A stretch of DNA of 64,000 bases from an uncultured Gemmatimonadaceae bacterium (GCA_963781585.1 CAWAGQ010000014.1:96001-160000), one strand, 5' to 3'; counted from the stretch's first letter, positions 2 through 58,626 are shown. Notes: a model not told the origin generated them from the letters alone. Program-made: numbers and translations.

Positions 2-1432
2 CTGGATGCGTCACAGGCGTCGCTGCTGGTGTATCGGCCCGAAAGCGCGCCGGTGTTTGCCCGGGATGCGGACCAGGCCGGCCGGGTCGTGGCCTCCCCG
101 GAGTCGCTGGCCAGCGACCTGCTGCCGGTTGCGCCGGCACCCGAAGCGGCCATCAGGACCGCGCCGCCAGCGTCGGTCCTGCGCGAGGCGCAGATCGGCG
201 CGGTCCATGTGTTTCGCACGCGCCGCGGCGTTCCGATCCTCGTCAGGCGGCGACCCGGCTCGCCGATCGTGCATGTGGGCATCTACAGTGCCGTCGGAAG
301 CGCGCGCGAATCGGACCAGCTGGCCGGGCTGGCGACCGTGAGCGCGCGCGCGACGGTCAAGGGGAGCGAGCAGCGATCGGCGGAGGCGATCGCCTACGCC
401 TCGGAGCTGCTGGGCGGCAGCATCGCGCCGAGCATCACCGCCGACGGCATGGGATGGACCTTCTCGGTGCCGGTCACTCGCACGGCCGACGCTGTGGCGC
501 TCTTTGCCGAGGTGGTGCTGCACCCCCGGCTGGCGGGAGAGGCGGTCGAGACCGAACGAACGATCGCGCTCGCCAATCTCGCCGAGTTGCGCGACGACAT
601 GTATCGCTATCCGGTGCGGCTTCTCAACGCCGCCGCATACGACGGTCATCCCTACGGCCGGGGACTGCTCGGCAGCGAGGAGACCTTGCGGGCGATTGGT
701 GAGGGCGATGTGCGTGCCTGGCACCAGTCGAGCGTGCTGACCGCTCCGGTGGTCATCGCCGCGGTTGGCGACGTTGACGAGCCCGGACTTGCCGGGATGC
801 TCGCGTCTGCGTTCGACGAGGTACAGATGGCGCCGTCGGTGCCCCTTGCGGCGCCGACGTGGCCGGCGGCGCCGCGTCAGGTGGCGGAACATCGCGATCG
901 GGCGCAGACCGCGCTGGCCCTGGCATTCCCGGCGCCCACGCGCCGCGATCCCGAGCGGTTTGCGGCGCTCCTGGTGGCGGGGATTGCCAGCGGTCTTGGC
1001 GGCCGCTTCTTCGAGGCGCTGCGCGAGCAACGGTCGCTGGCGTACACCGTGCATGCGGTGAGCATGGAGCGCGTGCAGTCGGGCGCGTTCGCGGCCTACA
1101 TCGCGACGTCACCGCAGCAGGAGGACGAGGCACGGGAGGGTCTGCTCGCGCAGTTCGCGCGGTTGCGGGAGGAGCCGGTGTCGGAGGAGGAGCTGACGCG
1201 AGCCAGGACCTACGCGTTAGGCAGTCACGCCATCGCCTTGCAGAGTGGCGGCGTGGTGCTCGGCGAGATGGTCGACAGCTGGCTGTTCGGAACGGGACTG
1301 AACGAACTGGAGGCATTCGAGCAGCGGCTGCGCGCGGTGACGGTGGACGGCGTGCTCGCCCTGGCGCAGCGCTACTTCGACCCGGAACGGCGTGTGGAAG
1401 GCGTGGTGCGAGGGGAAGGCCAGACACGATAG
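2..1432 (+). CDS. M16 (pitrilysin/insulinase) family zinc peptidase, C-terminal part; 5' end lies outside the window
   Basis: Frame open from base 2. M16 C-half patterns: GLATVSARATVKGS, GHPYGRGLLGSEE, GLGGRFFEALREQRSLAYTV, RAVTVDGVLALAQRYF. HxxEH motif not in view. Confidence 0.85.
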   Translation: MDASQASLLVYRPESAPVFARDADQAGRVVASPESLASDLLPVAPAPEAAIRTAPPASVLREAQIGAVHVFRTRRGVPILVRRRPGSPIVHVGIYSAVGSARESDQLAGLATVSARATVKGSEQRSAEAIAYASELLGGSIAPSITADGMGWTFSVPVTRTADAVALFAEVVLHPRLAGEAVETERTIALANLAELRDDMYRYPVRLLNAAAYDGHPYGRGLLGSEETLRAIGEGDVRAWHQSSVLTAPVVIAAVGDVDEPGLAGMLASAFDEVQMAPSVPLAAPTWPAAPRQVAEHRDRAQTALALAFPAPTRRDPERFAALLVAGIASGLGGRFFEALREQRSLAYTVHAVSMERVQSGAFAAYIATSPQQEDEAREGLLAQFARLREEPVSEEELTRARTYALGSHAIALQSGGVVLGEMVDSWLFGTGLNELEAFEQRLRAVTVDGVLALAQRYFDPERRVEGVVRGEGQTR

Positions 1433-1515
1433 CTGAAAGACCACAGGACACACCCGCGCGCTCGCGAGGCGTGGAGTACCACGGGTACCTGACGAGCGCC
1501 TTCGCGTGCCACCCT

Positions 1516-1571
1516 CCCATGACCTTTGGCCTTTGGCCTTTGGCCTATGACCCTTGGCCTTTGGCCTACTC
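1516..1571. repeat. Heptamer tandem array, (CCTTTGG)-like, about 8 units
   Basis: cccatga cctttgg cctttgg cctttgg cctatga cccttgg cctttgg cctactc; abuts the serpin stop codon between convergent genes. Confidence 0.9.
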
Positions 1572-2816
1572 CGGCACCTCCACCTTGCCCAGGAAGAGTA
1601 TGGTCCCCGTGAGTCGCTCGCGGATCGCAAAGACGAACGGACGGTTCACCCGAATGGCCTCGGGAAGCGAGGTGAGACCGATGCCCACGGTCGTTACCGC
1701 GGCTGCCTCGGTGCCGACTTCGTTCACATCGACGAACGTATTCTGCTTCACGTAGCTGATGTAGAGATGGTGTCCCGCGCTGGCCGACATGCGGGTGAAA
1801 TCCGCGCCGTCGGGCACAAAGGCCCGCTGCATCCCCAGCCGCTGGAGGGCGGGGTTCAGCGTGTCCTCCCAGGTCAGCGTGAACTTCGGGAGGTACAGGT
1901 CGGCGTCGTCATCGTACAGGTTCGCGGTCGCGGCAGCCCACGAGTCCGCGGAGAGCGCCGCGATCGCCTGATCGACCGAGACACCGGACAACGGCATCAG
2001 GATCGTCATCACGAACGCGTCGCCGCCGTACGGCAGCTCGACGACGGTGGCGTTCGCGGTCGTACCAAGGCGGAATCCGCCGGTCCGGTGCATGGTGGGA
2101 ACGCTCACCGACGGCCCGCTGGACGGGATGAACGGCTGGGGATGGGTCTCACTCTCCTTGAAGCCCTGGCGCCAGTCACCCTTGAAGTAGATCGCGTTCA
2201 TGAGGAGCATCACCAGGTCCGGTTCGATGTGCTCGATGACGCGAGGGATCCTCCCGCTGGTTGTGCGCCCTGCCCAGGCGTTCACCGTATCCACCGCCAG
2301 CGGCGAGGCGAAGTCCAGGCCCGCCACGTCGGCGTCGAAGTACTGTGCGGCGTCGCTCAGGAACGACGGTTCGACTGCGCCGCCGAAGGCGTCGTCGTAG
2401 AAGATCGCGTTGGCGATCCGGAAGTCGACGCGCCGGTCGAGGTTTCTCAGCAGCGCGATGAGGGACTGATACGACCGGTTCAGTTCGTCATGCGACTGGG
2501 TTCCGAAGCCCAGCGTCGTGCGCATCTCGTCGAACGTAGTCCCGGCGGCGCCGTCCATCGTCATGCCAAGCGCCATCGAGGCGCTGAGCGGGGACAGGAA
2601 GACGTTCTGTCCCGCGAACGACGGATTCTCTTCCCGGAGCAGGTTGAAGCCGAACACGTTCGAAGCGTCGATCATGGCCGCTTCGGTCGCCGACAGCGCA
2701 CGCGGGAGCGACGAGATCCTGGATGGCGTGGGGTCCGGAGCGGATGGGTCCGCGCATGCCGCGGCGGCCGTCACCAGTAACGGCAGCAGCAGGGCGGGAC
2801 GACGAAGCAAGGTCAT
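1566..2816 (-). CDS. Serpin (serine protease inhibitor), predicted lipoprotein
   Basis: NVFLSPLSASMALGM, NAIYFKGDW, hinge/RCL NEVGTEAAAVT, NRPFVFAIRE. Lipobox-like TAAAAC after ATG 2816, which has an AGAGAGG SD. Confidence 0.95.
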   Translation of the reverse strand: MTLLRRPALLLPLLVTAAAACADPSAPDPTPSRISSLPRALSATEAAMIDASNVFGFNLLREENPSFAGQNVFLSPLSASMALGMTMDGAAGTTFDEMRTTLGFGTQSHDELNRSYQSLIALLRNLDRRVDFRIANAIFYDDAFGGAVEPSFLSDAAQYFDADVAGLDFASPLAVDTVNAWAGRTTSGRIPRVIEHIEPDLVMLLMNAIYFKGDWRQGFKESETHPQPFIPSSGPSVSVPTMHRTGGFRLGTTANATVVELPYGGDAFVMTILMPLSGVSVDQAIAALSADSWAAATANLYDDDADLYLPKFTLTWEDTLNPALQRLGMQRAFVPDGADFTRMSASAGHHLYISYVKQNTFVDVNEVGTEAAAVTTVGIGLTSLPEAIRVNRPFVFAIRERLTGTILFLGKVEVPE

Positions 2817-2975
2817 GCAGGTGCCTCTCTGAGCGGGCGAAACCGACTTGTGCGCGACGCGCTGCTCACCGAGATGACACGTGCGGCGCCGGAATCCCCG
2901 ACTCCTGCGGGTTCCCACCGGTCCCGAAACCGAGGCCTGCGCGATGGCGCGACGCCTGCGGCCGTGTCCGCGCGC

Positions 2976-3731: not shown

Positions 3732-3750
3732 GCGGCGCCCGGAACGGTGG

Positions 3751-5289
3751 TCACGGCTCGGCCAGGATCTTTCTGACACGGGCGAGCACGTCGGTTGCGG
3801 GTCGCAGCCGTCCGCCCGGCGCGCGCAGCCCGGTGACTGCGTCGTAGTCACCGGCTCCTTCCGCGACGAAACCAGCAACCCGTGGAAGGGTCGTCGCCCA
3901 CGCCAGCATGCCCCAGAGGGACGCGCCCTGGTTCCGCTCGCCGAACAGGCGGGGATAGGCGCCGGTTCCGAGCACCCAGGCCGGTTTCCGTACGTTCTCC
4001 AACCAACGGTCCGCGACGAGCATTCGCGACCGGATTGAGGCGCCGCCGTCGTAGGAGGGGTACAGCGCGATCGCGACGTCGTCGATCGTCGTGGTGGGAC
4101 TCGCGGCCCACGCGAACAGCTCGCTGTCGGCAGGGGTGAAGGCCGACGCCGACACCGCCACGCGGGTCGCCGGACGGGCGGCATGCACCAGGGTGGCGGC
4201 GTCCCGCATGTACTGGCGCCACCAGCGCGGCGACACGCTGCCTAACGCCGCCGATCCGGCGAGACAGGGATCGAGCGCCGGGAACACCACGTCGGGGTGG
4301 AGGCGCCGCACCACCCGATCGAGGGCGGCCAGCCGCGTGCGCTGGTACTCCTCCGGATCGACACGAAAGCGCTGGGCGTCACCCACGCCGTATCCGAGGG
4401 CGACGAGCAGACGCACCCCGGATCGCCGCCGGTCTTCCAGCGCCCGGGAGAGCGAGTCGAGGGCCGCGGTGGTGACGCCTCCAGTCGGCTGGATGACGAC
4501 ACTTACTGCCTGCGCACCGATCGAGTCGACCAGCGCGAGATCCGCGAGTACCGCCGGCCGCGGCGGAGGCCCGGACAGTTCAGGGAAGATTCGCACGCCG
4601 ATCATGAAATCGCCCCGTGGCCGCTCCTGCAGCCGGTCGCCCGCGAATGCCGCAAACGTGGTCACCGCATGCAGCGCGCCGGGATACTCGACAGCGAACA
4701 GCACCAGCGTCGCCGTCGCCCAGAGCGCCAGAGCTACGCGGAAGACCTTCCCGGATCGATAGGGGGTGGGATAGGAGGGGGATAGGACGGGGACCTGGAG
4801 CGCCAACGGGGACGTCAGCGCGCTACGACCCCACACGAACGCGATCACGCTCGCATGCGACACGGCGAACGCCATCACTGGGGCCGGAGGCTCCGGCATG
4901 TGGGTGGTCAGAAAGCGCGCCAGGGCGCCCACGAAGAGGATCACGTTGTAAGCCGCGATGGGGAATCCCAGGAACGGGGCCACCGTACCGCGCCCGAGCG
5001 CGTAGAGTGCCTGCAGTGCGCAGAGGCACGCCACCACCGGCCAGAGCCAGTCGATGATGTAGACTGCGCGGCCGTTCAGCACGGTGCTCGCGACCACGGC
5101 CACGACCACGCCGGGAACCACGAGCAGCGACGACAGCGCGGTCAGCCCGAGAAAGACCGGTGAGCCTCGCCGGTTGTTGAGGATTCGACCCGCCACGAAC
5201 AGGTCCCAGGCGAGCACCACCGCGTCAATCGCGTAGAAGGCATGCGTGGGCGACGTCACCAGCGCAGTCTGCGCGAGCACGATGCGCAA
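3751..5289 (-). CDS. Hypothetical membrane protein: about 6 N-terminal TM helices plus a C-terminal glycoside-hydrolase-like (beta/alpha) domain
   Basis: Hydrophobic N-terminal ~200 aa, then alternating beta/alpha pattern ending in DYDAVTGLRAPGGRLRPA. TTG start with GGGGAG SD. Confidence 0.6.
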   Translation of the reverse strand: MRIVLAQTALVTSPTHAFYAIDAVVLAWDLFVAGRILNNRRGSPVFLGLTALSSLLVVPGVVVAVVASTVLNGRAVYIIDWLWPVVACLCALQALYALGRGTVAPFLGFPIAAYNVILFVGALARFLTTHMPEPPAPVMAFAVSHASVIAFVWGRSALTSPLALQVPVLSPSYPTPYRSGKVFRVALALWATATLVLFAVEYPGALHAVTTFAAFAGDRLQERPRGDFMIGVRIFPELSGPPPRPAVLADLALVDSIGAQAVSVVIQPTGGVTTAALDSLSRALEDRRRSGVRLLVALGYGVGDAQRFRVDPEEYQRTRLAALDRVVRRLHPDVVFPALDPCLAGSAALGSVSPRWWRQYMRDAATLVHAARPATRVAVSASAFTPADSELFAWAASPTTTIDDVAIALYPSYDGGASIRSRMLVADRWLENVRKPAWVLGTGAYPRLFGERNQGASLWGMLAWATTLPRVAGFVAEGAGDYDAVTGLRAPGGRLRPATDVLARVRKILAEP

Positions 5290-5377
5290 CAGCTCCCCAT
5301 GGCTGCCGGAAAGAGCGGGGCTTCATGCCGGCGCGGGCGGGCGCCGGCACGATCTGCGCGGGCCGCGGACTCTGCCA

Positions 5378-5737: not shown

Positions 5738-5863
5738 TGATCGAATGCGCGAGGAAAAGGCGACCAATCATTCCCACCGATCTCACCGCCACGTGTTTCA
5801 TCGGGGTGTACGTTGAGCGAACGACGCTGTCCTCGCCAGCCTTCTGACGTACCTTCCCTGCCC

Positions 5864-6548: not shown

Positions 6549-6558
6549 CCGACACTCC

Positions 6559-9215: not shown

Positions 9216-9300
9216 GAGGCGCGGCCGCCAGTCGGCAGAGCGGAGGGCGCGGGCCAGGGCGACGGGGAGCCATGTTCGCCCGTAGTCGTTAGGCGGCCCC

Positions 9301-15820: not shown

Positions 15821-17785
<1,965 letters not shown>

Positions 17786-40886: not shown

Positions 40887-43800
40887 GTGCGCGTCGCCCG
40901 GTTCGTCTCGGCCGCCCTGGCCGGTCTGTTCCTCCCCGCCGCTGCGCTGGGAGCGCAGCCCCCGCGGCGCGACAGCCTGCGGACCCGCCAAGCCGACACG
41001 ACCGCCACCCGGATTCCGAAGCCGGATACCACGAGTGCCGGAAGTCCGTCCGCAGGCGTGAGCGCGGCCTCCCAGCAGGACTCCGCGTTCTCGATGAAGC
41101 TCCTCGGTCGGCTGGAATTCCGGGGAGAGCGCACCAAGGACTACCTCTGCCTGTCCAACCAGGTCTTCAGCACATCGCTGCGCTGTCGCACGCACCTCAC
41201 TCCGGAGCTCGACTTCCAGTTCTCGCTCCTTTCCGCCGGAGCGGTCACCGACCGGGTGCACGTCGACGTCGACTACGACTCGCAGCGCGAGTTCGACGGC
41301 TCGAACAACATCTCCATCGCCTACAAGGGAAAGTCGGGCGAATTCCTGCAGGATGTCGAAGTGGGAAACGTCACCTTTGCGCCGCCCCCGTCGCGGTTCA
41401 TCACGTCCGGCATTCCCAGTGGCAACTACGGCGTGCTGGCCTCCGGCCAGGCGGGGAGCATGCGAATCAGCGCGATCGCCGCGCAGCAGAAGGGCAACGT
41501 GGTGCAGAACCAGGTATTCACCATCGGTGAGCGAATCGGCCAGCCGGTGGACCGGGACATCGAGGACTATCAGGTGGAGCCACGACGCTTCTTCTTCTCG
41601 GTCGACCCGGCGCTGTTCGGCTCGCGGTATCCGGGCATCGATATTCTCGACCCGAACCAGATGCGCTCTCTGGCCGCGTCGCTCCCCGACTCGCTGCGCC
41701 CGTCGCGGCTGTTTCTCTACCGGCTGCTGATCGGGGGCCAGCCGCCGAACCCGAACGGGCCCCGGTTCACGCTGCTGGACGACCCCGATTCGCGTCCGGG
41801 CCAGGTCTACGAACTCCTGCGGGAAGGGACCGACTACTACGTTGATCCATCGCTGCTCTGGTTCGCCCTGGTGCAACCGCTTGCGCTGCAGAACGAGCGC
41901 CTGGTGGTCGCGTATACGCTGCGCATCGGCGGGCGCGATACCACGATCGCGCGGCTGGGCGGCACCCCCGACCTGGCGTACACACCCAACCAGGCGCAGT
42001 ACGCGCATCTCGTCTGGGATCCACGCGTGTCGCCGGGCGACGCGGCGTTTCGTCGTGAGATCCGGTCGGTGTACCGGTTGGGCGGCGACGATGTGCGCCG
42101 CGAGACGGTGTCGCTGCGGATGACGGCCGGAACGGGCGCCGACCAGGAGAAGCCGCCCGGGGTGGCCACGACGTATCTGCAGATCTTTGGTCTGGCCCAG
42201 CGGACGAACTCGGCCGCGTTCGATGCCGGAAACCGCCTGTGGCCCCGGCCGCAGGATCCCAACGACCTGGTCAGCCCCACCGCCGACGCCGGTCGCATCC
42301 TGCACGACCTCTTCATCGTGTTCCCGTCGCTCGAGCCGTTTTCGGCCGGCGCGCTGGCTGCGCACCCGACCCTGGTGCCTAACGATACACTGTATCGCAC
42401 GCCTGACGAGTACCTCTATTCGCCGCAGCACCCGCAGTCGGTGTACCGGCTGCGGGTGGCCTATGAGGCGCGCGGCATCGCCGGGCCGGGCGCGGTCTCG
42501 CTCGGCTCCGGCCAGCTGCGCCCGGGCAGTGAGCGCCTCAGCCTCGACGGACGCACGCTGATTCGCGGCATCGACTACGACATCGACTACGATCTCGGCC
42601 GGGTGCAGCTGCTTACCGCCGATACCCTGAATCCGCGTCCGCAGCGCCTGGTGGTGCGGTACGAGGAGAATCCCCTGTTCACCAGCGTCCCCACGTCCAT
42701 CCTGGGGCTCTCCAGCCAGTGGACGCTTCCCTGGGGGAACGTCGCCTTCACGGCGCTTTCGCAGAGTCAGCGCACGACGTTCACGCGCCCCCCGCTGGGG
42801 TACGAGCCGCAGGGGTCGCTGATGGCCGGACTGACCGCGTCCCTGGGCTGGGGCCTGGGCGGCGTGTCGCGCAGTCTGGCCCACTGGCTGCCGCACGCCG
42901 ACAGCGCCGCGGCTTCGCGTCTGGACGTGCAGGCGGAGCTGGCGGTAAGCCAACCACGTCAGTCGGGATCGCAACAGGCATACCTCGCGTCGTTCGAGGG
43001 AGAAGGAGGGATCAACATCAACCTCCTCGCCAGCGGGTGGCTCTACAGCAGCCAGCCGGCGCTCGGCAGCCGGCTGGCCGCTCGCCTGGGCGCATCGACG
43101 TTCGATACGCTGCGCGCGGCGACCATGGCCTTTCAGAACTTCGGGACGGACGCCGATGGCGCCCCCGTCTCGTTTTCCCTGCCGCAGATCGATCCGCGCG
43201 TCGCCCTGGCCGGCGCGACCTTTCCCGGCCTCGAGCAGATTCTGTGGCTGACGCTGTATCCGCTGACGACCGGCGGGCTCTATGACGAGCAGACCGGCAC
43301 CTATCGATGGCAGGTCGGGCGTTCAGTCGCCGGACGCCGATGGCGCTCGGTGCGAACCCCGCTGGCGCCCGGCGGAAACGGCGTGGACCTCACCCAGGGC
43401 GAGCAGCTCGTCTTCTGGACGCTGGTCGACACGACATCCGCGCGCCTGCAGGAGAATCCGGTTCTGATCTTCGACTTCGGCGACGTTTCGGAGAACAGCG
43501 TCTTCTTCGCGCCGGAATCGCTGCACGTATCGGGCGGGGCACTCCGTGATTCCACCTACAGCGGGAAGACGCTGCAGGGATTCGATGTCCTCAACAGCGA
43601 GCGTGACCCGTTCTCGCGGGCCTTCAGCGCGCAAGTCAACGACCTGGGTCTTCCGGGCGATGTCGTGGATCGCCTGGTGGTCGCGGAAGGCGCGTCGGTG
43701 AGCACTGCGGTGAACGTGCCGGTCTGCCAGTTCGGGAGCGCCCGGATCCGGCGGCTGGGTGATGCGCGGGCCGACTGCACGGCACACAACAGCCGGCTCG

Positions 43801-46926: not shown

Positions 46927-47835
46927 GTGAGAATGTTCGCGATGCTCTGCGCGCTGTTCGCGCTCAGCGGATGTCACCGCGGGAGCGACGTGCGCGGCAC
47001 ACCGTTCGATGGGGAGAAGGCCCTGGGCTATGTCCGGACCTTCATGGACTTCGGACCCCGGGTGCCCGGGACCGACGCCGCGCGGCGCGCCGGCGACTGG
47101 ATCACGGACGAGATGCGGCAGCGCGCGGACACGGTGGTCGAGCAGCGTTGGACGCACGTGACCGCGAAGGGAGACTCGCTTCCCCTGCGCAACATCCTCG
47201 CGCGCTACCGGCCGGCCGCGTCGGCCCGGATCCTCTACGTCACCCACTGGGATTCCCGGCCGGTATCCGACGAATCTCCCGACCCCGCCAAGCGCAAACT
47301 GCCAGTTCCGGGCGCCAACGATGGTGGATCGGGCGTGGGGCTCTTTCTGGCGTTAGGCGACGCTCTGAAGTCCGCACCGCCGTCGGTGGGTGTGGATCTG
47401 CTGTTCGTGGACGGAGAGGACTACGGCCAGTTCGGTCCCCCCGACGTCGACGTGCTCATGGGATCGGAGTACTTCGCGCACCATCTGCCGTCGCCCGAGT
47501 ACCAGATCCTGTTCGGTGTGTTGTGGGACATGATCGGCGACTCCGACCTGCAGATCTATCAGGAGCAGATCTCCGCCGAGAAGGCACCCGAGGTCGTGAC
47601 GCGTGTCTGGGAAACCGCGGCCGACCTCGGGTACTCCAGCTACTTCCGGCCGCAGGCGCGCTACAGCATTACCGACGATCACGTGCCGCTGCTCGACGCC
47701 GGATTGCGGGTCATCGATGTCATCGACTTCGACTACCTGCCGTATCACCACACGCCCGAAGACACGATCGACAAGCTCTCGGCCCATTCGCTCAAGGTGG
47801 TGGGCGACGTGGCCTGGCGCGTGCTGCAGCAGTAG
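46927..47835 (+). CDS. M28 family zinc lipoprotein, glutaminyl-cyclase-like
   Basis: Lipobox LSGC; FGPRVPGT, HWDSRP, GANDGGSG, DGEDYG, DMIGD, DDH, HHT.ED. Confidence 0.88.
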   Translation: MRMFAMLCALFALSGCHRGSDVRGTPFDGEKALGYVRTFMDFGPRVPGTDAARRAGDWITDEMRQRADTVVEQRWTHVTAKGDSLPLRNILARYRPAASARILYVTHWDSRPVSDESPDPAKRKLPVPGANDGGSGVGLFLALGDALKSAPPSVGVDLLFVDGEDYGQFGPPDVDVLMGSEYFAHHLPSPEYQILFGVLWDMIGDSDLQIYQEQISAEKAPEVVTRVWETAADLGYSSYFRPQARYSITDDHVPLLDAGLRVIDVIDFDYLPYHHTPEDTIDKLSAHSLKVVGDVAWRVLQQ

Positions 47836-47981: not shown

Positions 47982-48542
47982 ATGGTGAGCGCGTCCGAGC
48001 GTCGTGCGCTGATTCTGGTGACCACCGTGCTGTGTCTGGGCGTCGTCGCCCGGATCGGCCGTGCGCGCGGTGCGCATCCCGAGCCGACGGCGTCGGAGCA
48101 ACGCGCGCTCGACATCCAGATCGCACGCGTGGAGAGCGCCAGGGCGGTCCGGCAGGGTGGAGCGCGCGGCCCGCGCCCCACGCGGGCCGCTGTGGCCGTG
48201 CCGAGGGACCGGGTTGTCGCCCGCGACACCGTCCGGACCCAGGCTCATGACCCGCCGCGCCCGCTCCTGGACGTCGACCGGGCTTCCGCGAGCGAAATGG
48301 AGCGCCTTCCATATGTAGGGCAGGTGCTCGCCGACCGCATCGTTGCCGACCGGACGGCCTGCGGTCCCTTCGGCTCGCTGGAGGAGCTGAAGCGGGTGCG
48401 AGGCATCGGCGATGCGATGGCAGCGCGCCTCGCTCCGCTCGTGACGTTTTCGGCCCCGCCACGTCCTAGGGGTGCGGCGCCGGCACCCACGTGTCCGGGC
48501 GCCGTCAAACGCGCCGCGCCTCGCGGGCGTGGACGGCCCTGA
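47982..48542 (+). CDS. comEA: ComEA-family helix-hairpin-helix DNA-binding protein
   Basis: N-terminal TM; LDVDRASASEMERLPYVGQVLADRIV, GPFGSLEELKRVRGIG. Confidence 0.85.
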   Translation: MVSASERRALILVTTVLCLGVVARIGRARGAHPEPTASEQRALDIQIARVESARAVRQGGARGPRPTRAAVAVPRDRVVARDTVRTQAHDPPRPLLDVDRASASEMERLPYVGQVLADRIVADRTACGPFGSLEELKRVRGIGDAMAARLAPLVTFSAPPRPRGAAPAPTCPGAVKRAAPRGRGRP

Positions 48543-48624
48543 CGGCGCTTGTCCATGCACGATGGGCGCGGCGTCTGCCTTTCGGCTCGGCTGCGTCGGA
48601 ACCTCTTCATTTTCGCACGATCGC

Positions 48625-50451
48625 ATGACGACTCCAGTCGCCGCGCTTCCCGAGCGCATCACGGAGCTGCTGCTCAGCGAAGGGTTCATCACGCGCGAGC
48701 ACCTCGATCGGGCACAGCGCGACGCGAAAAACAACGGGTCCACCGTCACCTACGCGCTGATCAAGACCGGCGCGCTGGATGAGGTCGAACTCACCAAGAT
48801 CATCGCGAGAACCTACCGCATGCCCGCGGTGGACCTCGCGAAGTTCGAGGTCGACGGCCGCATTCTCAAGCTGGTGCCGGCGGAACTGGCCACCAAGCAC
48901 CTGATCCTGCCGCTCAAACGCGACGGGCGCACGCTCACGGTGGCCATCGCCGACCCGACGAATCTGGAGATTCTCGACGACCTCAAGTTCATCACGCGTT
49001 ACGACATCTTCCCCGTGCTGGCCGGGGAATACACCCTGCGCGAAGTCATCGAACGCGGGTACGACACCGGCGATGTGGCGATGCAGTCGCTGCTCGACGA
49101 TATCGCGGGCCTCGAAGGCGACGTCGAGGTCGTGGCGGAGGAAGAGGAGGACCTTTCCACCGCGGCGCTGGCTGCGGCGGTCGACGACGCCCCGGTCGTC
49201 AAGCTCATCAACGCGATTCTCACCGACGCGGTGAAGCGCGGGGCGAGCGACATCCATTTCGAGAGCTTCGAGCACGAGCTGCGCGTACGCTACCGCATCG
49301 ACGGCGCGCTGCAGGAGGTGATGAAGCCGCCGTTCAAGCTGAAAGCGGCGCTCATCTCGCGCTTCAAGATCATGTCGCAGCTCAACATCGCCGAGCGGCG
49401 CGTGCCCCAGGACGGGCGCATCAAGTTGAAGATCGGCAACAAGGTCATCGACTATCGCGTGTCCACCCTCCCCACCTTGTTCGGCGAGAAGGTCGTGCTC
49501 CGGATTCTCGACAAGGGGAACCTGACGCTCGAACTGGAGAAGTTCGGGATGGAGCCCAGCGCCGAGCGGTCGCTCATGGAAGCGATCATGAATCCGTACG
49601 GCATGGTGCTGGTGACCGGTCCAACCGGTTCAGGCAAGACGACCACGCTGTACTCGGCGCTGTCGAAGATCAACACGATGGACGTGAACATCATGACGGC
49701 CGAGGATCCCGTCGAGTACAACCTGTTCGGGATCAATCAGGTGCAGGTGCGCACCGAAATCGGAATGAGCTTCGCGGCCGCGCTGCGGGCGTTCCTTCGT
49801 CAGGATCCGAACATCATCATGGTGGGAGAGATCCGCGACCTGGAAACGGGTGGCATCGCGATCAAGGCCGCGCTCACCGGGCACCTGGTGCTGTCCACGC
49901 TGCACACCAACTCCGCGGCCGAGACGGTCACCCGTCTGCTGGACATGGGGCTGGAGCCGTACAACGTGGCGAGTGCGCTCAATCTGGTGGCCGCGCAGCG
50001 GCTGGTGCGCCGTATCTGTTCGCGCTGCAAGGAGAAGTACGTGCCGGAGGAGGAGGAGCTGGCGGGCGCGAAGGTGACGCGCGACACCACCATGGGCGAC
50101 CTGCGGCTCACCGCCGACGAACTGGAGATGGCCGTCGCGCGCGCGACACCGGAGGCGGAGACGCTTCTCAGGAATGTGACGCTCAACACCCCAATCGGCG
50201 AACTGCCCTTCTTCAGGGGTCGCGGATGCGAGGACTGCTCGGGCAGCGGCCTCAAGGGACGACAGGGCCTGTACGAGGTGCTCGCCATGTCTCCGCAGAT
50301 CCGCAAGCTGATTCTGCAGAACGCGAGCGGCGCCGAGTTGCGGGATGCGGCGATCGCGAATGGCATGCTGACCTTGCGGATGGACGGATGGCTAAAGGTC
50401 CTGAAGGGCATCACCACCCTGGAGCAGGTGATCCGCGAAACCAGTGCCTGA
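48625..50451 (+). CDS. pilB: Type IV pilus assembly ATPase
   Basis: ASDIHFE, AERRVPQDGR, GPTGSGKTTT, AFLRQDPNIIMVGEIRD, CxxC pairs. Confidence 0.93.
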   Translation: MTTPVAALPERITELLLSEGFITREHLDRAQRDAKNNGSTVTYALIKTGALDEVELTKIIARTYRMPAVDLAKFEVDGRILKLVPAELATKHLILPLKRDGRTLTVAIADPTNLEILDDLKFITRYDIFPVLAGEYTLREVIERGYDTGDVAMQSLLDDIAGLEGDVEVVAEEEEDLSTAALAAAVDDAPVVKLINAILTDAVKRGASDIHFESFEHELRVRYRIDGALQEVMKPPFKLKAALISRFKIMSQLNIAERRVPQDGRIKLKIGNKVIDYRVSTLPTLFGEKVVLRILDKGNLTLELEKFGMEPSAERSLMEAIMNPYGMVLVTGPTGSGKTTTLYSALSKINTMDVNIMTAEDPVEYNLFGINQVQVRTEIGMSFAAALRAFLRQDPNIIMVGEIRDLETGGIAIKAALTGHLVLSTLHTNSAAETVTRLLDMGLEPYNVASALNLVAAQRLVRRICSRCKEKYVPEEEELAGAKVTRDTTMGDLRLTADELEMAVARATPEAETLLRNVTLNTPIGELPFFRGRGCEDCSGSGLKGRQGLYEVLAMSPQIRKLILQNASGAELRDAAIANGMLTLRMDGWLKVLKGITTLEQVIRETSA

Positions 50452-50489
50452 TCGACGATTCGGGTCGCGTGCGGACCGGAACGTCGCTG

Positions 50490-50505
50490 CGTGATTTCTC
50501 TCACA
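50490..50505. promoter_or_regulatory. CRP/FNR-family-like box upstream of pilT
   Basis: CGTGA-tttctc-TCACA versus consensus TGTGA-N6-TCACA (one mismatch). Confidence 0.35.
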
Positions 50506-50729
50506 TTCGTGGCGACCGGGTGCCACGAGTTCAGCGTGACTCTTCGCGCGTGTTGCCAGTCTCGTAAGTGTCCGACGGCGCGCGGGCTACCCGCTGGACG
50601 CGCCATCTGTCCGTCTCTCGAACCGGCTCCACCCATGGCGGCGACCGCCCAGTTGTGTCGTTCGGTCTCCTCCGGCGTTGCGCGTCTCTCGCGCCCTGCC
50701 GCGCCGCCTCGCGCCTAACGCCGACCGCC

Positions 50730-51887
50730 ATGTCCGACACCACGACGACCGCGAACACCATCAACCTGCGCATGCTGCTCGATGAGATGATCGAGCGCGA
50801 CGCGTCCGACCTGCATCTCACGGCAGGCGAACGGCCCAAGCTGCGCGTCGACGGCGACATCGTGAACTCGGGCGTCGAAACGCTGCTCAGCCCGAAGGAC
50901 ACGCTCCAGCTGGCCTACTCGGTGCTGACCGAAAACCAGAAGAAGCGGTTCGAGATGGAAGACGAGCTGGATTTCTCGTTCGGCATTCAGAATCTGGCCC
51001 GGTTCCGTGGAAACTGCTTCAAGCAGCGCGGCTGCGTCTCGGTCGCCATTCGCCAGATTCCATTCAGCATCCGCACGTTCCAGGACCTTGGACTGTCGGC
51101 GGTCGTCGCCCGGATGGCCGAAAAACCCCGTGGTCTGGTTCTGGTCACCGGCCCCACCGGTTCGGGCAAGTCCACCACGCTCGCGGCCATGATCGACAAG
51201 GTCAATCGTGAGCGGAAGGGACACATCATCACGGTCGAAGACCCGATCGAGTTCATCCACCGGCACCAGGGCTGCATCGTCAACCAGCGCGAGGTGGGAA
51301 GCGACACGCACAGCTTCGCCAACGCGCTCAAGTACGCGCTGCGCGAGGACCCCGACGTCATTCTCATCGGCGAAATGCGGGACCTCGAGACCATCGCCGC
51401 CGCGCTCACCATCGCCGAGACCGGACATCTCGTCTTCGCCACGCTCCACACCAACTCGGCCGCCGAAGCGATCAACCGCATCATCGACGTCTTCCCCAGC
51501 CATCAGCAATCGCAGGTGCGCGCCCAGCTCGCCTTCGTGCTCGAGGGGATCATCACCCAGACCCTGCTCCCCCGGGCCCGGGGACGCGGCCGCGTCATGG
51601 CCGCCGAAATCCTCGTCATCACGCCGGCCATCCGCGCCCTGATCCGCGACGACAAGGTCCACCAGATCTACTCGCTGATGCAGTCGGGAAAGAAATTCGG
51701 GATGCAGACGCTCAACGATGCGCTCTATCAGCTCTACGTGGCGCGCGAAGTCGAGGAAGAGGAATGTCTGCGCGTCACGAGCGATCAGAACGAATTCCTC
51801 CGCCTGATCGGCCGACAGCCCGCCGGCGACGACGGGAAGGCCGACCGCAATGGCCGCCTCACCCCCATCAGCGCGGGACGCCGATGA
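50730..51887 (+). CDS. pilT: Type IV pilus retraction ATPase
   Basis: ASDLHL, GPTGSGKSTT, ALREDPDVILIGEMRD, AETGHLVFATLHTNS, AIRALIRD, GMQT. Confidence 0.96.
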   Translation: MSDTTTTANTINLRMLLDEMIERDASDLHLTAGERPKLRVDGDIVNSGVETLLSPKDTLQLAYSVLTENQKKRFEMEDELDFSFGIQNLARFRGNCFKQRGCVSVAIRQIPFSIRTFQDLGLSAVVARMAEKPRGLVLVTGPTGSGKSTTLAAMIDKVNRERKGHIITVEDPIEFIHRHQGCIVNQREVGSDTHSFANALKYALREDPDVILIGEMRDLETIAAALTIAETGHLVFATLHTNSAAEAINRIIDVFPSHQQSQVRAQLAFVLEGIITQTLLPRARGRGRVMAAEILVITPAIRALIRDDKVHQIYSLMQSGKKFGMQTLNDALYQLYVAREVEEEECLRVTSDQNEFLRLIGRQPAGDDGKADRNGRLTPISAGRR

Positions 51888-52000
51888 CGGCCAGCGCGTC
51901 GGCCGCGGCATCCCGTACGCCGGCGGGCGGTGCGTCGCGGCCCGACTGCCCCGAGTCCATTGCAACTGCCACCGCCTTTCTAACCACGGAATAGCATCGA

Positions 52001-53194
52001 ATGCCAGCCTTCACCTACACCGCCCGTACCTCCAACGGCGAGCTGCGCACCGCAACGATCGACGCCCCGTCGCGCGAGGACGTCGTCGCCCAGCTCCGCC
52101 GCCAGCGGATGAGCATCGTCAAGGTCGACGAGGACGCGAAGCCGAAGAAGCGCAAGGGCTCCATCAAGATGCGCGATGTGGTCATCTTCACGCGCCAGTT
52201 CTCGACGATGATCAACGCCGGTCTGCCGCTCGTGCAGGCCCTTGACATCCTCGCCAAGCAGTCGGAGAACAAGGTCCTCGCCGCGGTCACCCGCGACCTG
52301 GTCTTCGACGTCGAGTCCGGTCACACGGTGGCCGACGCGCTGGCCAAGCACCCGAACGCGTTCAGCGACCTGTACGTGAACATGGTCGCGGCCGGTGAGG
52401 CCGGCGGTATCCTCGACACCATTCTCCTCCGACTGGCGACGTTCATGGAAAAGAACGACGCCCTGGTCCGGAAAGTGAAGGGGGCGATGATCTACCCGGG
52501 CGTCATCATGAGCGTAGCGGTCATCGCCATCACCGTCCTGCTCATCTTCGTGATTCCGGTGTTCGAGGGAATGTTCAGCAGCGTCGGCCTCGCGCTCCCG
52601 CTGCCGACCCGGGTGGTCATCGGCATGTCGCGGTTCCTCAAGGGATACTGGTTCGTCGTGGCCGGGGTCATCGCGGGCACCGTCTGGCTGCTGCGTCGCT
52701 ACTACCGCACGTCGAACGGCAAGCTGGCCATCGACCGGATGCTGCTGCGGATGCCGGTGTTGGGCGACGTGCTCCGCAAGAGCGCCGTCTCCCGGTTCAC
52801 GCGCACGCTTGGCACCCTGATCAGTTCCGGCGTGAGCATCCTGGACGGTCTCGAGATCACCGCCAAGACGGCCGGCAATCGCGTCATTCAGGACGCGATC
52901 ATGTCGTCCCGGGCGAGCATCGCCGGCGGCGACACCATCGCCGCACCCCTCCAGAAGTCCGCCGTCTTTCCGCCGATGGTCATTTCGATGATCGCCGTCG
53001 GTGAGCAGACGGGCGGTCTGGACGAGATGCTCACCAAGATCGCCGACTTCTATGACGAAGAGGTAGACGCCGCGGTGAGCGGCCTGCTCGCGCTGCTGGA
53101 ACCGTTGATGATCGTCTTCCTCGGCGTGGTGGTGGGCGGCATGGTGGTCGCCATGTATCTGCCGATCTTCGACATGATCAACGCGGTGCAGTAG
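52001..53194 (+). CDS. pilC: Type IV pilus inner-membrane platform protein (GspF family)
   Basis: FTRQFSTMINAGLPL, AGEAGGILD, GEQTGGLDEML, EPLMIVFLG, MYLPIF. Confidence 0.95.
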   Translation: MPAFTYTARTSNGELRTATIDAPSREDVVAQLRRQRMSIVKVDEDAKPKKRKGSIKMRDVVIFTRQFSTMINAGLPLVQALDILAKQSENKVLAAVTRDLVFDVESGHTVADALAKHPNAFSDLYVNMVAAGEAGGILDTILLRLATFMEKNDALVRKVKGAMIYPGVIMSVAVIAITVLLIFVIPVFEGMFSSVGLALPLPTRVVIGMSRFLKGYWFVVAGVIAGTVWLLRRYYRTSNGKLAIDRMLLRMPVLGDVLRKSAVSRFTRTLGTLISSGVSILDGLEITAKTAGNRVIQDAIMSSRASIAGGDTIAAPLQKSAVFPPMVISMIAVGEQTGGLDEMLTKIADFYDEEVDAAVSGLLALLEPLMIVFLGVVVGGMVVAMYLPIFDMINAVQ

Positions 53195-53307
53195 ACCGGC
53201 GCGACACGCGCCAGGTCGGTCAGCGGACTCCGGGTTGCTCCCGGTCCGCGAGAAAGGTCAGAACACGCACGGTTGCGCCGCTGCCTCCACCGGGCAGCGG
53301 CGCAGTG

Positions 53308-53939: not shown

Positions 53940-55106
53940 TCAACTGGAGTAGTACGCCGCGTTCTCGTCGATGTAGCCTTTGGTGAGATCGCACCCGTAG
54001 GCCGTCGCCGTCGCCGCGCCGACGCCTAACGCGACCTCGATGTCCACGGTCTCGCTGCCGAGCGCCGTCCGGACCGCGCTGTCGTCGAATTCGAGGCGCG
54101 CGCCGCCGCGGACCACCGGGAACCCGTTGATCCGGACGTCGGTCTGCCCGGGCACCACCACGCACTCGAAGCACTTGCCCACCGCCATCAGGATCCGTCC
54201 CACATTGGGGTCGGCGCCGTGCACCATCGTCTTCACGAGGGGCGAGTTCACCAGGGACTTGGCGACGCGTCGGGCGTCGTCGTCGCTGGCCGCCCCGCGC
54301 ACCGTCGCGCGCAGCAGGTGCGTTGCCCCCTCTCCATCCCGCGCGAGCACTTCGGCCATCCGCACGGAGCCGGCGATCAGGGCGTCCAGAAACGCTCCTG
54401 CGTCCACCGGCCCGGCCATGCCATTGGCCATGACCGCGCAGGTATCCGACGTGCTCGTATCGCTGTCGACCGAGAGCATGTTGAACGACACCCGTACCGC
54501 GCTGCGAAGCATGGTGTCGAGCGGCGACGCCTCGAGCGCGGCGTCGGTGAAGATGTAGACGAGCATGGTGGCCATGTTGGGCTCGACCATGCCGGAGCCC
54601 TTCGCCACCCACGAGATGGTCGCATCGCCCACTCCCAGCGACAGCGCCTTGGGACGGCTGTCGGTGGTCATGATGCCTTCTGCGCCGACCAATGGGTCGT
54701 CGCGCAATTCCCCCGCCATGCCGCGGATCCCGCGCTCGACGGTCTCGATCGGGAGGGGCACGCCGATCACGCCGGTCGAGCTCACCAGCACCCGGTCGGC
54801 GCTGGTCCCGATTTCGGCAGCGGCCGCGCGCGCCATCCGGCGGGCGTGCTCCAGCCCGGTGGTTCCGGTGGCGACGTTGCTGTACCTGCTGTTGGCGACA
54901 ATGCCGCGCAAGCGACCGCCGCGGATCGTAGTGCGACCGAGCACGATGGGTGCGCCTGGAAAGTGATTGCGCGTAAAGACCGCCGCCGCGGTCGCGTCCA
55001 CGTTGCTGACGAAGAGAGCCAGATCCTTCGCGGCGGGCTTGAGTCCGCAATTGCGGCTCGCGCACCGGAAGCCACCGGGGAATCGAGGCGTGTCGTGAAA
55101 GGACAT
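53940..55106 (-). CDS. argJ: Ornithine acetyltransferase / N-acetylglutamate synthase
   Basis: VFTRN, SSTGVIG, IMTTD, AKGSGMVEPNMATML, DSDTSTSD, RDGEGAT, GCDLT.GYI..NA.Y. Confidence 0.95.
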   Translation of the reverse strand: MSFHDTPRFPGGFRCASRNCGLKPAAKDLALFVSNVDATAAAVFTRNHFPGAPIVLGRTTIRGGRLRGIVANSRYSNVATGTTGLEHARRMARAAAAEIGTSADRVLVSSTGVIGVPLPIETVERGIRGMAGELRDDPLVGAEGIMTTDSRPKALSLGVGDATISWVAKGSGMVEPNMATMLVYIFTDAALEASPLDTMLRSAVRVSFNMLSVDSDTSTSDTCAVMANGMAGPVDAGAFLDALIAGSVRMAEVLARDGEGATHLLRATVRGAASDDDARRVAKSLVNSPLVKTMVHGADPNVGRILMAVGKCFECVVVPGQTDVRINGFPVVRGGARLEFDDSAVRTALGSETVDIEVALGVGAATATAYGCDLTKGYIDENAAYYSS

Positions 55107-55490: not shown

Positions 55491-55506
55491 GGACGGCCGT
55501 AACGAC

Positions 55507-55665: not shown

Positions 55666-56289
55666 CTAGCCGGTGGTGCCGCCGACCGTCTGCTGCAGTT
55701 GCCTGGCCCGGTCGAGGTGGGCGGAAATCGTCGCCCGCGAGTTCTGCAGCAACTGCTTCAGGTCTGCATTCGCCGCCGACGGGATCAGGTTCTGATCGAG
55801 CTCATCGAGTTGCTTCTGCAGAGACTGGACCTCGTGACCCAGATAGGTGTTGTCGAAGTCCGAACCGGACTGCCCCTTGAGCGAGCTGAGCGTCTGGTCG
55901 GCATCGCTCTGCCACGCCATGCTCTTGTCGTTAGGCATGCCGGTGATCGATGCGCTCTGGGCGAGGTTCTGCGCGTCCTTGTTCAGGTTGGCGTCGTCGC
56001 TGACCATCGTCCTGGCGAACTCCTTGACGCCGGCGCTCTTCGCCTTGGTCCTGGCAAGCGCGCTGACCGCGCTGTCGGCGGTATTGGCCGTGTAGAACAC
56101 CTGGAGGATGTCCGCATCGGCCATCGCGGGCGTGGCGGGCAGGGCGGTGGCGGGAGCGGTATCGACACCGGCCATGGTATCGACCGCCATCTGGTCCTGC
56201 CGCGACTTGCAGGCCGCGAGCGCCAGCGCCAGCAAGGCCAGCGCGGCGAGCCGCGGCGCCTTGAGGGTATCCGGGAGCGTGGAGAACAT
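55666..56289 (-). CDS. DUF4142 family lipoprotein
   Basis: Strong SD; lipobox LAAC; VKEFARTMVSD, GSDFDNTYL, LIPSAANADLKQLL, HLDRARQL. Confidence 0.88.
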   Translation of the reverse strand: MFSTLPDTLKAPRLAALALLALALAACKSRQDQMAVDTMAGVDTAPATALPATPAMADADILQVFYTANTADSAVSALARTKAKSAGVKEFARTMVSDDANLNKDAQNLAQSASITGMPNDKSMAWQSDADQTLSSLKGQSGSDFDNTYLGHEVQSLQKQLDELDQNLIPSAANADLKQLLQNSRATISAHLDRARQLQQTVGGTTG

Positions 56290-56654
56290 GAGACCTCTCC
56301 TCCTTGTCGGTTTGAATGGTGATCGGCGCCGGAAGCCTAACGAACACCGGTCGATCGCCGAGCGTCGCGTCGATGGCGCCACTGGCGCGACCATAGCGGC
56401 TCCGATGGCCTCCGATGATGGGGGTGCGTCTACCGTCCTGCTGTCCGAACGCGCGCATGATCGCCGGGTGCGTCGGTACGCGCGGCCGGGTCCGGCAGCG
56501 GCCGCATTGTTGCCCCGGGCCGCGATGCACTGTGGCCCGATCGCGCACCGTTTGTCTGTGATCCATCCGACGCTGCCGCGCCGCGCGACCGGCCTCGGCT
56601 GCAGACGTTGGGTCGGGCCCAACACCCGGCTTCGGCGCGGTTCGCGACGTCCAG

Positions 56655-57533: not shown

Positions 57534-57765
57534 CGGTTCCCCCAACCAAATGCACATGGCGGTTGGGCGGCCGCGGCCGGGGCCAGACGCTCCGGCGTCC
57601 TCGCGCATCCGCCACACCGGCCTCGCCAGAACGTGGCAGCGGGATCGGTGGTGCCACAGAATGCGACACCGATGCATGCGGCAACATTCCGCTTCGGTAA
57701 AGACTTGGTATTGGCCTAACGGAGGGTGCGCTCGCGGCGGGTGCGTTCAGCGGGCGCGGAGCGCC

Positions 57766-58401
57766 TCAGCTGGTGCGGACGATCCCTCTTTTCAGCGCGA
57801 TGGAGGCGGCATGGGCGCGATCGCGCGCGCCAAACTTCGCCAGGATCGCCTTCACATGCGCTTTGACGGTGCCTTCGGTGATGTGAAGGTGACTCGCGAT
57901 TTCCTGGTTGGACCGGCCGGCGACCACCAGCTGCAGCGTGTCCAGTTGTCGTGGTGTGAGCGATGGCTTGGCCATGTGCTCGGCAAGCTTTGCCGCAATC
58001 CGCCCGGGAATTCGCTTCTCGCCGGAATGCACAGCGACGATCGTATCGACCAGCTCGCCAAGCCCTACGTCCTTCAGCAGATAGCTCGCCGCCCCCGCCT
58101 TCAGCCCGCGGTAGATGTCTTCCTCGGTATCATAGGTTGTCAGCAGGATGATTCGCGCATCGGCGTCGAGCTGACGCAGCGCCACGATGGTCTCCACGCC
58201 GTCCATCGGCGACATTCTCATGTCCACGAGAGACACGTCGGGGCGGGCCTGGCCGTACAATTCAAGAGCGCGCATCCCGCTTTCGGCGCTGCCCACAACG
58301 TCGATCCGCGGGTTGCGGCCGAGCAGCTCCGCGAGCCCCTGCCGCACCAGCTCGTGGTCGTCTACGATGAGAACGCGCGTACGTGCCGAGAGCGCTTCCA
58401 A
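57766..58401 (-). CDS. NarL/LuxR family response regulator
   Basis: VLIVDDHELVRQG, DMRM, YLLKD, LTPRQ...GRSNQEIA..LHITEGTVKAHV. Start uncertain. Confidence 0.93.
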   Translation of the reverse strand: MEALSARTRVLIVDDHELVRQGLAELLGRNPRIDVVGSAESGMRALELYGQARPDVSLVDMRMSPMDGVETIVALRQLDADARIILLTTYDTEEDIYRGLKAGAASYLLKDVGLGELVDTIVAVHSGEKRIPGRIAAKLAEHMAKPSLTPRQLDTLQLVVAGRSNQEIASHLHITEGTVKAHVKAILAKFGARDRAHAASIALKRGIVRTS

Positions 58402-58626
58402 TGGGCCCTGCCGAACAAGGAGTGTGGAAAGGTGCAAGACCACTTCATACCGCGCAAGGGACACCCTCCCTTCTCCCACATGAGGGATGGCGGTGTATGC
58501 CTAACGTAGCCGCATCCGTGTTCTCCGGACGGCCCATTGTGCGAGGCGGCCGCGACCGGCGAAAGTTCGACAAGGCGGCGGATTCGCCGACGCCGGGATG
58601 GTGGTGGACAGGCGACAGGTCGGAGC

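Follow-up and report, generated by a model that had tools for sequence, protein, structure and literature searches.

A hyper-abundant eight-base word in Gemmatimonadota genomes: conservation as DNA, identity with an integron attC end and a possible role as an uptake-type tag

Introduction

The described systems that come closest to the DNA word reported here are the uptake sequences, HIP1, the Chi and FtsK-orienting polar sequence (KOPS) signals and the attC sites of integrons. Uptake signal sequences (USS) are evenly spaced. The highly iterated palindrome HIP1 is a palindromic bare 8-mer found about once per kilobase in genes and spacers alike; its distribution is patchy, it is linked to methyltransferase sites and its function is unsettled. 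The known Chi sites show a strong bias towards the direction of replication. The word considered here, GCCTAACG (reverse complement CGTTAGGC), is a non-palindromic 8-mer that recurs throughout a stretch of 64,000 nucleotides from an uncultured Gemmatimonadaceae bacterium (GCA_963781585.1 CAWAGQ010000014.1:96001-160000). This whole stretch is called the window; in our own labels, in which G stands for a genome and C for a contig, it is G000:C14:96001-160000.

DNA uptake-enhancing sequences (DUES) are described, in the part of the source available to us, for the Neisseriaceae and Pasteurellaceae only, with hundreds to thousands of copies; the same part reports that about half of them, together with most inverted pairs, sit in transcription terminators (10.1101/2025.10.24.684340). 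An enrichment of DUES in genome-maintenance genes has been reported as well. Their receptors are given as ComP for the DNA uptake sequence (DUS) of the Neisseriaceae and, as a prediction, ComN/PpdA for the USS of the Pasteurellaceae (10.1101/2025.10.24.684340; PMC12616744, both in extract). For integrons, the published attC consensus reads RYYYAAC for the R'' box and GTTRRRY for the R' box in the accessible portion of PMC12901181, and the primer HS287, with the 3' end CGTTAGSC, targets conserved attC sequence (PMC10963911, likewise in extract).

Abundance of the word

G000 is a draft assembly of 5,715,271 bases in 17 contigs, with a GC content of 66-68% and an estimated contamination of 7.2%. 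Its gene models are heuristic in-house calls (4683 genes covering 87% of the DNA), and here and below the absence of a gene from a metagenome-assembled genome (MAG) counts as weak evidence. By exact matching the window holds 19 copies of the word, 13 as GCCTAACG and six as CGTTAGGC, each of them at a position already given in an earlier note on this DNA. In 100 dinucleotide-preserving shuffles the expectation was 0.92 copies (standard deviation 1.09, largest value 5) and 19 was never reached. The tetramers CTAA and TTAG number 29 in the window against 70.5 expected, and a recount places just six of them outside CCTAAC, the figure that the earlier note had estimated by eye. The same note had listed four variants with the core only, and CCTAAC without the full word was located at 3717, 16623, 18214 and 19331. 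The 19 copies are as follows, with their state in the sister species G001 and in the further relatives G005, G009 and G024 where this is informative.

1215..1222, minus strand (CGTTAGGC on the plus strand): within a gene; shared with G001
4240..4247, plus strand: within the gene at 3751-5289 (minus strand); shared with G001
9287..9294, minus strand: outside the gene calls, between 9215 and 9301; shared with G001
17395..17402, plus strand: acetyl-CoA synthetase gene; G001 reads GCCCGACG there
19620..19627, plus strand: fabF, encoding A-L-G of the GHALG motif; shared with G001
20322..20329, plus strand: fabF, S-A-L-G; shared with G001
26797..26804, plus strand: amino-acid transporter gene; shared with G001
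28795..28802, plus strand: heme o synthase gene; shared with G001
36680..36687, minus strand: mlaD-like gene; one-base difference in G001
37923..37930, minus strand: lptG; G009 has the word at the same position
38581..38588, plus strand: lptG
42377..42384, plus strand: sprA of the type IX secretion system (T9SS); G005 has the word at the same position
47351..47358, minus strand: M28 peptidase gene; same position in G001, G009, G005 and G024
50713..50720, plus strand: doubtful 5' end of pilT (first 20 codons)
54024..54031, plus strand: argJ
55929..55936, minus strand: DUF4142 gene; absent from G001
56335..56342, plus strand: outside the gene calls; one-base deletion in G001
57714..57721, plus strand: outside the gene calls; one-base difference in G001
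58499..58506, plus strand: outside the gene calls; two-base difference in G001

The five intergenic copies of the earlier note are in keeping with the four outside the gene calls (9287, 56335, 57714 and 58499) and the one at the doubtful start of pilT (50713), and its placing of the word within a ketosynthase GHALG motif is borne out at 19620 in fabF.

The excess extends to the whole genome, which holds 1442 copies (718 on the plus and 724 on the minus strand) at 0.19-0.34 per kb on each of the 17 contigs, or about one per 4 kb. An order-2 Markov model predicts 44.3 copies and ranks the word first among 8-mers by a wide margin; an order-3 model with the word masked predicts 19.0. The excess over chance is thus about 30- to 75-fold. 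Under an order-6 model the word is not outstanding, since outside the word the 7-mers of which it consists are just as rare. The earlier note had proposed a codon-preserving null besides the Markov models, and the two kinds agree: in 30 within-gene synonymous-codon shuffles the mean was 51.5 genic copies (29.9 + 21.6), against 1151 observed (347 + 804).

Sequence and coding frames

The word is a bare 8-mer. Flanking positions carry at most 0.3 bit, with G and A disfavoured at the base before the word and G at the base after it, so that the conservation or structure extending beyond a core that marks repetitive extragenic palindromes (REP) and miniature inverted-repeat transposable elements (MITE) was not found; the unrelated flanks imply that the word is not a mobile repeat. 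Of 154 copies in the word-rich relative G009, 49 are followed by A and 56 by C. Of the 24 words one base away that were checked, those altered at outer positions are enriched (ACCTAACG 13.9-fold, GCCTAACA 8.9-fold, CCCTAACG 4.1-fold and GCCTAACC 4.3-fold), as are GCATAACG (5.7-fold) and GCCTGACG (3.6-fold), while changes at positions 2, 4, 6 and 7 leave the count at about the expected level. The neighbour ACCTAACG is poorly conserved between species (5/16), which indicates that the exact word is the unit.

The reading frames recorded in the earlier note (Leu-Gly, Pro-Asn and Val-Arg) match the genome-wide tally. The frame xCG TTA GGC accounts for 766 of the 1442 copies, xxG CCT AAC G for 276, xGC CTA ACG for 67 and xxC GTT AGG C for 35; 105 copies straddle a gene edge and 193 (13%) are intergenic. 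The two other reading frames contain TAA or TAG and are empty of copies. More than half of all TTA codons in the genome (768/1415) lie inside the word, as do 280 of the 5851 CCT codons, and genes for both tRNA-Leu(UAA) and tRNA-Leu(UAG) are present. When the sites are counted at which the word could be written by synonymous change, 278 of 865 (32%) are filled in the Pro-Asn-[ADEGV] frame and 768 of 4986 (15%) in the [APST]-Leu-Gly frame; the frame that requires CTA is filled at 67 of 2558 sites (2.6%) and the one that requires both GTT and AGG at 36 of 3313 (1.1%). This unequal occupancy points to a pull at the DNA level that is offset by codon cost. Within genes the copies are biased to low-cost reading frames, like DUES, whose frame bias likewise follows codon cost according to the available part of 10.1101/2025.10.24.684340.

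The reading that there is no signal at all, the excess resulting from composition, from codon usage or from copies of a repeat element, can draw on the fact that part of the pattern is codon-driven, as seen in the neighbour GCCTGACG, which is enriched and is conserved in 56 of 80 copies in the sister species. It is refuted by the shuffle, Markov and synonymous-codon nulls, all of which are surpassed 20- to 75-fold, and by the unrelated flanks; CTAA is moreover avoided elsewhere in the window (six outside the word against 70 expected in total). We regard its probability as negligible. The synonymous shuffles, the occupancy of sites and the conservation described next agree with the claim of the earlier note that it is the DNA word, not the protein, on which selection acts, and support the conclusion that selection or drive does so.

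Conservation between species

The sister species G001 belongs to the same genus and is collinear with G000, with 88.5% identity over 427,080 aligned columns. The alignment contains 85 word sites that are shared, 23 that occur in G000 only and 17 that occur in G001 only, so that 85 of 108 are retained. Retention is 42% for all 8-mers, 36/78 for other NNCTAANN words, 34/69 for GCCGAACG and 56/80 for the codon-favoured GCCTGACG. The word is thus conserved as DNA beyond the comparison 8-mers. Within the window, 13 of the 19 copies are shared with G001. Conservation does not spread to the surroundings: the ten bases beside shared sites diverge by 12.4%, like the average elsewhere. Divergence from G001 within 1 kb of sites is 10.6-11.0%, against 11.8-12.1% beyond, and a local lowering of divergence around sites was set aside as a small effect.

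Between genera the positions turn over. In the 19-kb mla-lpt-sprA-pil region, 15 copies of G009 stand opposite ordinary synonymous sequence in G000, and the position at 47351 is the only one common to G000, G001, G009, G005 and G024. As most positions differ between genera, gains are independent, repeated and made by point changes.

Spacing and orientation

Copies are spaced more evenly than chance. Against a null of 300 draws from the reachable sites of G000, there are eight spacings of up to 100 bp (35.8 in the null), 68 of up to 500 bp (173.7, standard deviation 12) and 211 of up to 1 kb (326.6, standard deviation 14). The same deficit of close neighbours is seen in G009, in which 154 copies in 122 kb give 12 spacings of up to 200 bp against 33 expected. 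Word density rises with local GC content, from 2.0-3.5 up to 5.6-9.1 copies per 20 kb, and no alternation of orientation was found between neighbouring copies in G000.

The orientation of the word goes with the strand of the gene (Spearman -0.49), which the frame usage would lead one to expect, and not with GC skew: windows of G000 with positive GC skew hold 275 plus and 314 minus copies, those with negative skew 226 and 208, and of 1023 cases 540 have CGTTAGGC on the G-rich strand. Replichore polarity was therefore rejected. The earlier note had named strand skew as the check that would separate Chi or KOPS from an uptake sequence, and the GC-skew test on the draft contigs speaks against the former. 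A Chi-like signal, in which the word would be a mark of self and a recombination hotspot for a helicase-nuclease of the RecBCD or AddAB type, shares with the word an over-represented 8-mer spaced at a few kilobases; the density in G000 of one per 4 kb resembles that of Chi, as does the even spacing. Chi and KOPS are strand-polarized to replication and far less enriched, whereas this word is unpolarized, and Chi comes nowhere near its 30- to 75-fold excess or the range of 6 to 6360 copies that genera of one family span. This makes a Chi-like role very improbable.

Distribution among relatives

Across 41 relatives the count of the word ranges from 6 to 6360 (the maximum being in G009), and 14 genomes have at least 150 copies: G000, G001, G005, G009, G013, G014, G015, G016, G020, G023, G024, G036, G038 and G040. 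A survey of 401 genomes of the phylum gave 18 with at least 300 copies, namely 13 of 94 in family f1 and five of 166 in family f2, the latter all belonging to genus g82; the 136 genomes of families f4-f12 stay below that level, at 70 copies or fewer, and in family f3 the word-rich members are found only in the sample of 41 relatives. By genus, the word-rich genomes make up 2/2 in g49, 2/2 in g50, 6/6 in g82 (181-1061 copies) and 0/16 in g39. Genus g51 is split: three of its genomes have 3479-4141 copies and G294 has 66. The tallies include the unpublished genomes G008, G086, G204 and G125, all of which are word-poor and on none of which singly any claim is made. In samples of the word-rich genomes G009, G241, G001 and G005, the word again outranks every other 8-mer. 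The earlier note had spoken of a lineage-specific word; what is observed instead is presence or absence by genus across three families of the order.

Such a bare 8-mer in genes and spacers, patchy among relatives, recalls HIP1. On this alternative an orphan DNA methyltransferase, or some other system of modification or repair, would act at the word, which would be kept either because strand discrimination, replication or nucleoid functions need its mark regularly or because biased repair re-creates it. The use of several frames and the conservation in orthologues fit, and the even spacing would suit a mark required every so many bases. HIP1 is palindromic and tied to methyltransferase sites, however, whereas this word is asymmetric. 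The signature of very-short-patch repair is also lacking: the C-to-T neighbours TGTTAGGC and CGTTAGGT are enriched 8.9-fold and 13.9-fold and the inner ones stand at 0.8-1.8-fold. Vsr was found in five of the 41 relatives, namely the word-rich G000 and four word-poor genomes, and not in G001, G009, G005 or G024. Very-short-patch repair was rejected because the neighbour words are undepleted and Vsr does not track the word. With divergence near the sites not clearly lower either, we consider a HIP1-like origin unlikely.

A site for a nucleoid, segregation or condensation protein that is needed every few kilobases would likewise explain a word that is genome-wide, evenly spaced, present on both strands and conserved over no more than 8 bp. 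Selection on each such site would be very weak, yet preferred codons are displaced; the sister genera, and G294 within genus g51, manage without the word and, in the sequence sampled, without a replacement for it, and no candidate protein was found. This explanation seems to us rather improbable.

Relation to integron attC sites

Word-poor genomes contain dense clusters of the word on one strand, and these are integron cassette arrays; a polar signal, considered as the source of the clusters, was rejected on this ground. The cassette units are 500-650 bp long and each ends in an attC site of about 96-135 nucleotides that runs from GCCTAACG to (T)GTTAGGC or (T)GTTAGAC and forms an imperfect hairpin (-31 kcal/mol in one example). 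Large chromosomal arrays were found at G027:C95:1-30000, G027:C80:1-6000, G027:C43 and G025:C3:1-9000, and 24 kb of G027:C95 carry at least 24 cassettes. An integrase fragment (G027:C80:6537-7148) adjoins the array on G027:C80, and an integrase gene adjoins the copies on G025:C26. A profile of the attC interior gave 60 matches in the G027 and G025 loci, preceded mostly by GCCTAACG, with GTCTAACG as the second form of the box. The word is therefore identical in all eight positions (8/8) to the commonest R'' end of the attC sites in these arrays. Within it, GCCTAAC and GTTAGGC fit the R'' and R' consensus, and the word as a whole matches the CGTTAGSC end of HS287. By our own estimate, the chance that a random 8-mer matches CGTTAGSC or its complement is about 6 in 100,000. 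As a separate observation, strand-lopsided counts of the word in many f2 genomes (62:6 in G152 and 3:42 in G331) probably mark further arrays.

What is new here is that, on comparison of sequences, the hyper-abundant word is the R'' end of the order's attC sites and the 3' end of HS287. The earlier note had known of no description of the motif. This holds for the genome-wide excess, which appears to be undescribed, and fails for the word itself, which is a conserved attC end. Searches of the literature for the 8-mer in either orientation returned primers or unrelated uses among the matches listed; combined with over-representation, uptake or attC, the 8-mer gave nothing relevant among the matches listed. 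No publication was found that links GTTRRRY to an uptake sequence, and a search for integron attC sites in Gemmatimonadetes gave unrelated matches only.

This identity raises the alternative that the integron integrase, or a tyrosine recombinase related to it, binds the word, in which case the bare copies would be attG-like landing or titration sites or would have been made by the integrase. Besides the 8/8 match to the commonest R'' end, the fit to the consensus (PMC12901181, in its accessible portion) and the 3' end of HS287 (PMC10963911, in extract), it can point to an integrase above the curated cut-off in G000, in 26 of 41 relatives and in nine of ten further word-rich genomes, and the available text of PMC12901181 cites cassette insertion at attG sites in the genome. 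The genomic copies nonetheless differ from attC and attI sites, being single boxes in housekeeping genes that belong to no array and have no integrase beside them. An attC site has paired inverted boxes 50-150 nucleotides apart, a hairpin and a place in an array beside intI, as in the arrays of G027 and G025, whereas more than 99% of the genomic copies are without a partner box or hairpin. Around ten convergent box pairs, two of them clearly structured, were found among the 1442 copies of G000, near the integrase at C7:185885-186829 and scattered elsewhere, and the attC profile built from G027 and G025 gave just three weak matches when run on G000.

Nor does the enrichment follow the degenerate consensus. 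The second R'' form, GTCTAACG, is not enriched in G000 (14 seen, 18 expected), and of the 16 GTTRRRY words only GTTAGGC (34-fold) and GTTAGGT (6-fold) are. The integrase is present in 8 of 14 word-rich and 18 of 27 word-poor relatives and the richest genome, G009, has fragments only; together with the nine of ten further genomes, this amounts to neither association nor exclusion, and the integrase was rejected as the driver since it does not track the word among the 41 relatives. Bare words as cassette junctions were rejected because the 7-mer stands at only two of the 22 boundaries of the 11 indels (250 bp or longer) that separate G000 from G001, and cassette genes as the source of the word because the 24-kb array of G027 has no copies outside the attC ends. 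Thousands of recombination sites in essential genes should, moreover, be harmful. We therefore think it improbable that the genomic word is a recombinase site.

A two-gene element encoding a 301-residue tyrosine recombinase and a 389-residue IS91-family Y2 transposase was also observed in three identical copies (G000:C7:172353-174475, C7:182952-185074 and on C13 near 309021-309851). Two of the copies adjoin attC-like sites near the integron integrase at C7:185885-186829.

Further observations

A second over-represented word, AGGCCAAA, has 331 copies in G000, mostly outside the gene calls (277/331), and 47 in G001 against 1.9 expected. It is part of a tandem heptamer, (GGCCAAA)n, of which there are 16 perfect arrays of 3-15 copies in G000 (for example C8:183244-183348 and C5:172131-172228); in the window it occurs at 1525-1545.

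Relative to G001, G000 has a 16-kb insertion (C13:115577-131591) beside a tRNA-Leu(UAG) gene (C13:115596-115681). This island holds eight exact copies of the word and is thus denser than the genome average. Two near-identical genes for PilA-like pilins (127 residues, 57-58% GC) at C5:319862-320245 and C8:324679-325062 both lie in word-poor stretches of low GC content and may be recently acquired DNA.

Single loci of 12-22 kb from other lineages (L013, L026, L016, L079 and L065/L005) contain candidate words of their own: CAGCAACG, with 23 copies against 1.8 expected in a Gemmatimonadales MAG; GAGGTAGA, with 9 against 0.4; ACTCCTCA, with 8 against 0.24; AGCCTGTC, with 10 against 0.4; and GTAGAGCA, in two loci.

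Discussion

We tentatively read the word as a tag at the level of DNA, most likely of the uptake-sequence type and working by a mechanism like that of DUS and USS, and hold this with somewhat less than even confidence. By analogy with those systems, we infer that the reader would be part of the uptake machinery and that transformation drive would be the force. A sequence-specific reader would recognize the bare 8-bp duplex, with slight tolerance at the outer positions. Copies would arise by point mutation where coding permits, the main gains being the conversion of [A/P/S/T]-Leu-Gly to xCG TTA GGC and of Pro-Asn to CCT AAC, and would be kept through an advantage at each site that shrinks when another copy is near. 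In the uptake route of type IV pilus, ComEA and ComEC, a receptor for DNA at the cell surface would favour fragments that bear the word; alleles with the word would then be over-transmitted through transformation (molecular drive) and the word would spread evenly in resident DNA. The sequence-level findings on anatomy, coding, conservation and spacing fit an advantage per site with diminishing returns, and biased uptake followed by recombination is the sole known mechanism that gives one.

The word shares several features with DUS and USS. In both cases a short non-palindromic word occurs on both strands in hundreds to thousands of copies, sits in genes in the cheapest frames, is conserved as DNA, is evenly spread and is absent from unrelated genomes. 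The differences are that this word has 8 bp without informative flanks, is 13% intergenic and forms hardly any terminator pairs, that it shows no dialects in the word-poor relatives sampled, that it does not track a ComP-family pilin, that it equals an integron attC end, that its largest gaps in G000 fall in genome-maintenance genes and that it belongs to another phylum.

Genes for DNA uptake are present in G000. The window itself carries a ComEA-like gene and, after it, pilB, pilT and pilC; ComEC, DprA and 17 prepilin-type genes lie elsewhere. The features concerned, given here as context only, are the following.

47982..48542, plus strand: gene for a ComEA-like protein (HHH_3 helix-hairpin-helix), directly upstream of pilB
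48562..53194, plus strand: pilB, pilT and pilC (type IV pilus ATPases and platform)
53258-53902, minus strand: gene for an EVE (PUA-like) domain protein, just after pilC

The earlier note took the comEA-pilB-pilT-pilC cluster as fitting an uptake sequence. The genes are indeed there, but the same arrangement is found in word-rich and word-poor relatives alike. Three candidates for the discriminating gene or receptor were rejected: ComEA, as the same locus occurs in the word-poor G002; a ComP-type receptor, as PF16732 does not track the word among the 41 relatives; and the EVE-domain gene next to pilC, as it occurs in 28 of the 41 relatives, word-rich and word-poor alike. An EVE homologue was found in none of the eight genomes of family f3, three of which are word-rich. 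A search of the literature for natural transformation together with competence in Gemmatimonadota returned only unrelated matches.

Several observations weigh against an uptake tag. The comEA-pilB locus is identical in G002 and so does not discriminate, and ComP_DUS (PF16732) was above the cut-off in one of the 41 relatives only, which is itself word-poor. Unlike DUES with their terminator habit, 193 of the 1442 copies are intergenic and 105 lie at gene edges, and convergent pairs within 200 bp make up just 8 of 1425 spacings. No comparable replacement word was found in 47-94 kb of each of the word-poor genomes G294, G003, G002 and G026, which indicates presence or absence and not dialects of the DUS type. 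The two longest word-free stretches lie at G000:C4:866742-905435 (38.7 kb) and G000:C8:283862-322251 (38.4 kb), where chance would give 0.07 gaps of such length; both hold core housekeeping genes and neither is an island. One extends from alaS, recX, recA and ftsK as far as lptD, tatC and tol-pal, and the other, with 62% GC, from arg genes, murB and gidA as far as parA. The region from alaS to tol-pal is also poor in the word in G001 (two copies in about 17 kb) and normal in G009 and G241. Finally, exact identity with an integron attC end is not predicted by an uptake model.

That identity could be accommodated if the reader, a DNA receptor or another genome-wide one, were tuned to attC ends, so that some soil lineages would preferentially take up cassette DNA ('cassette fishing'); on this proposal, which we put forward only as an outside chance, the bias would incidentally load the cell's own DNA with the word. 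It would explain both the 8/8 identity with attC and the presence or absence of the word by genus. In a weaker variant, the attC ends and the genomic word may share one host reader.

An uptake-type tag in these genomes, if true, would be a third, unrelated case of a self-DNA tag, beyond the two proteobacterial families and in uncultured soil Gemmatimonadota. The system lends itself to finding the reader by comparative genomics, with a fixed word that goes from fewer than 10 to more than 6000 copies between sister genera and with one genus that holds both the word-rich and the word-poor state, a useful contrast. For work on integrons in word-rich genomes, it is relevant that the last eight bases of the standard cassette-PCR (polymerase chain reaction) primer match thousands of chromosomal sites, although the rest of the primer would not. 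The identity with attC, if it is not due to chance, matters for the movement of cassettes from cell to cell and for the question of why attC ends are so conserved.

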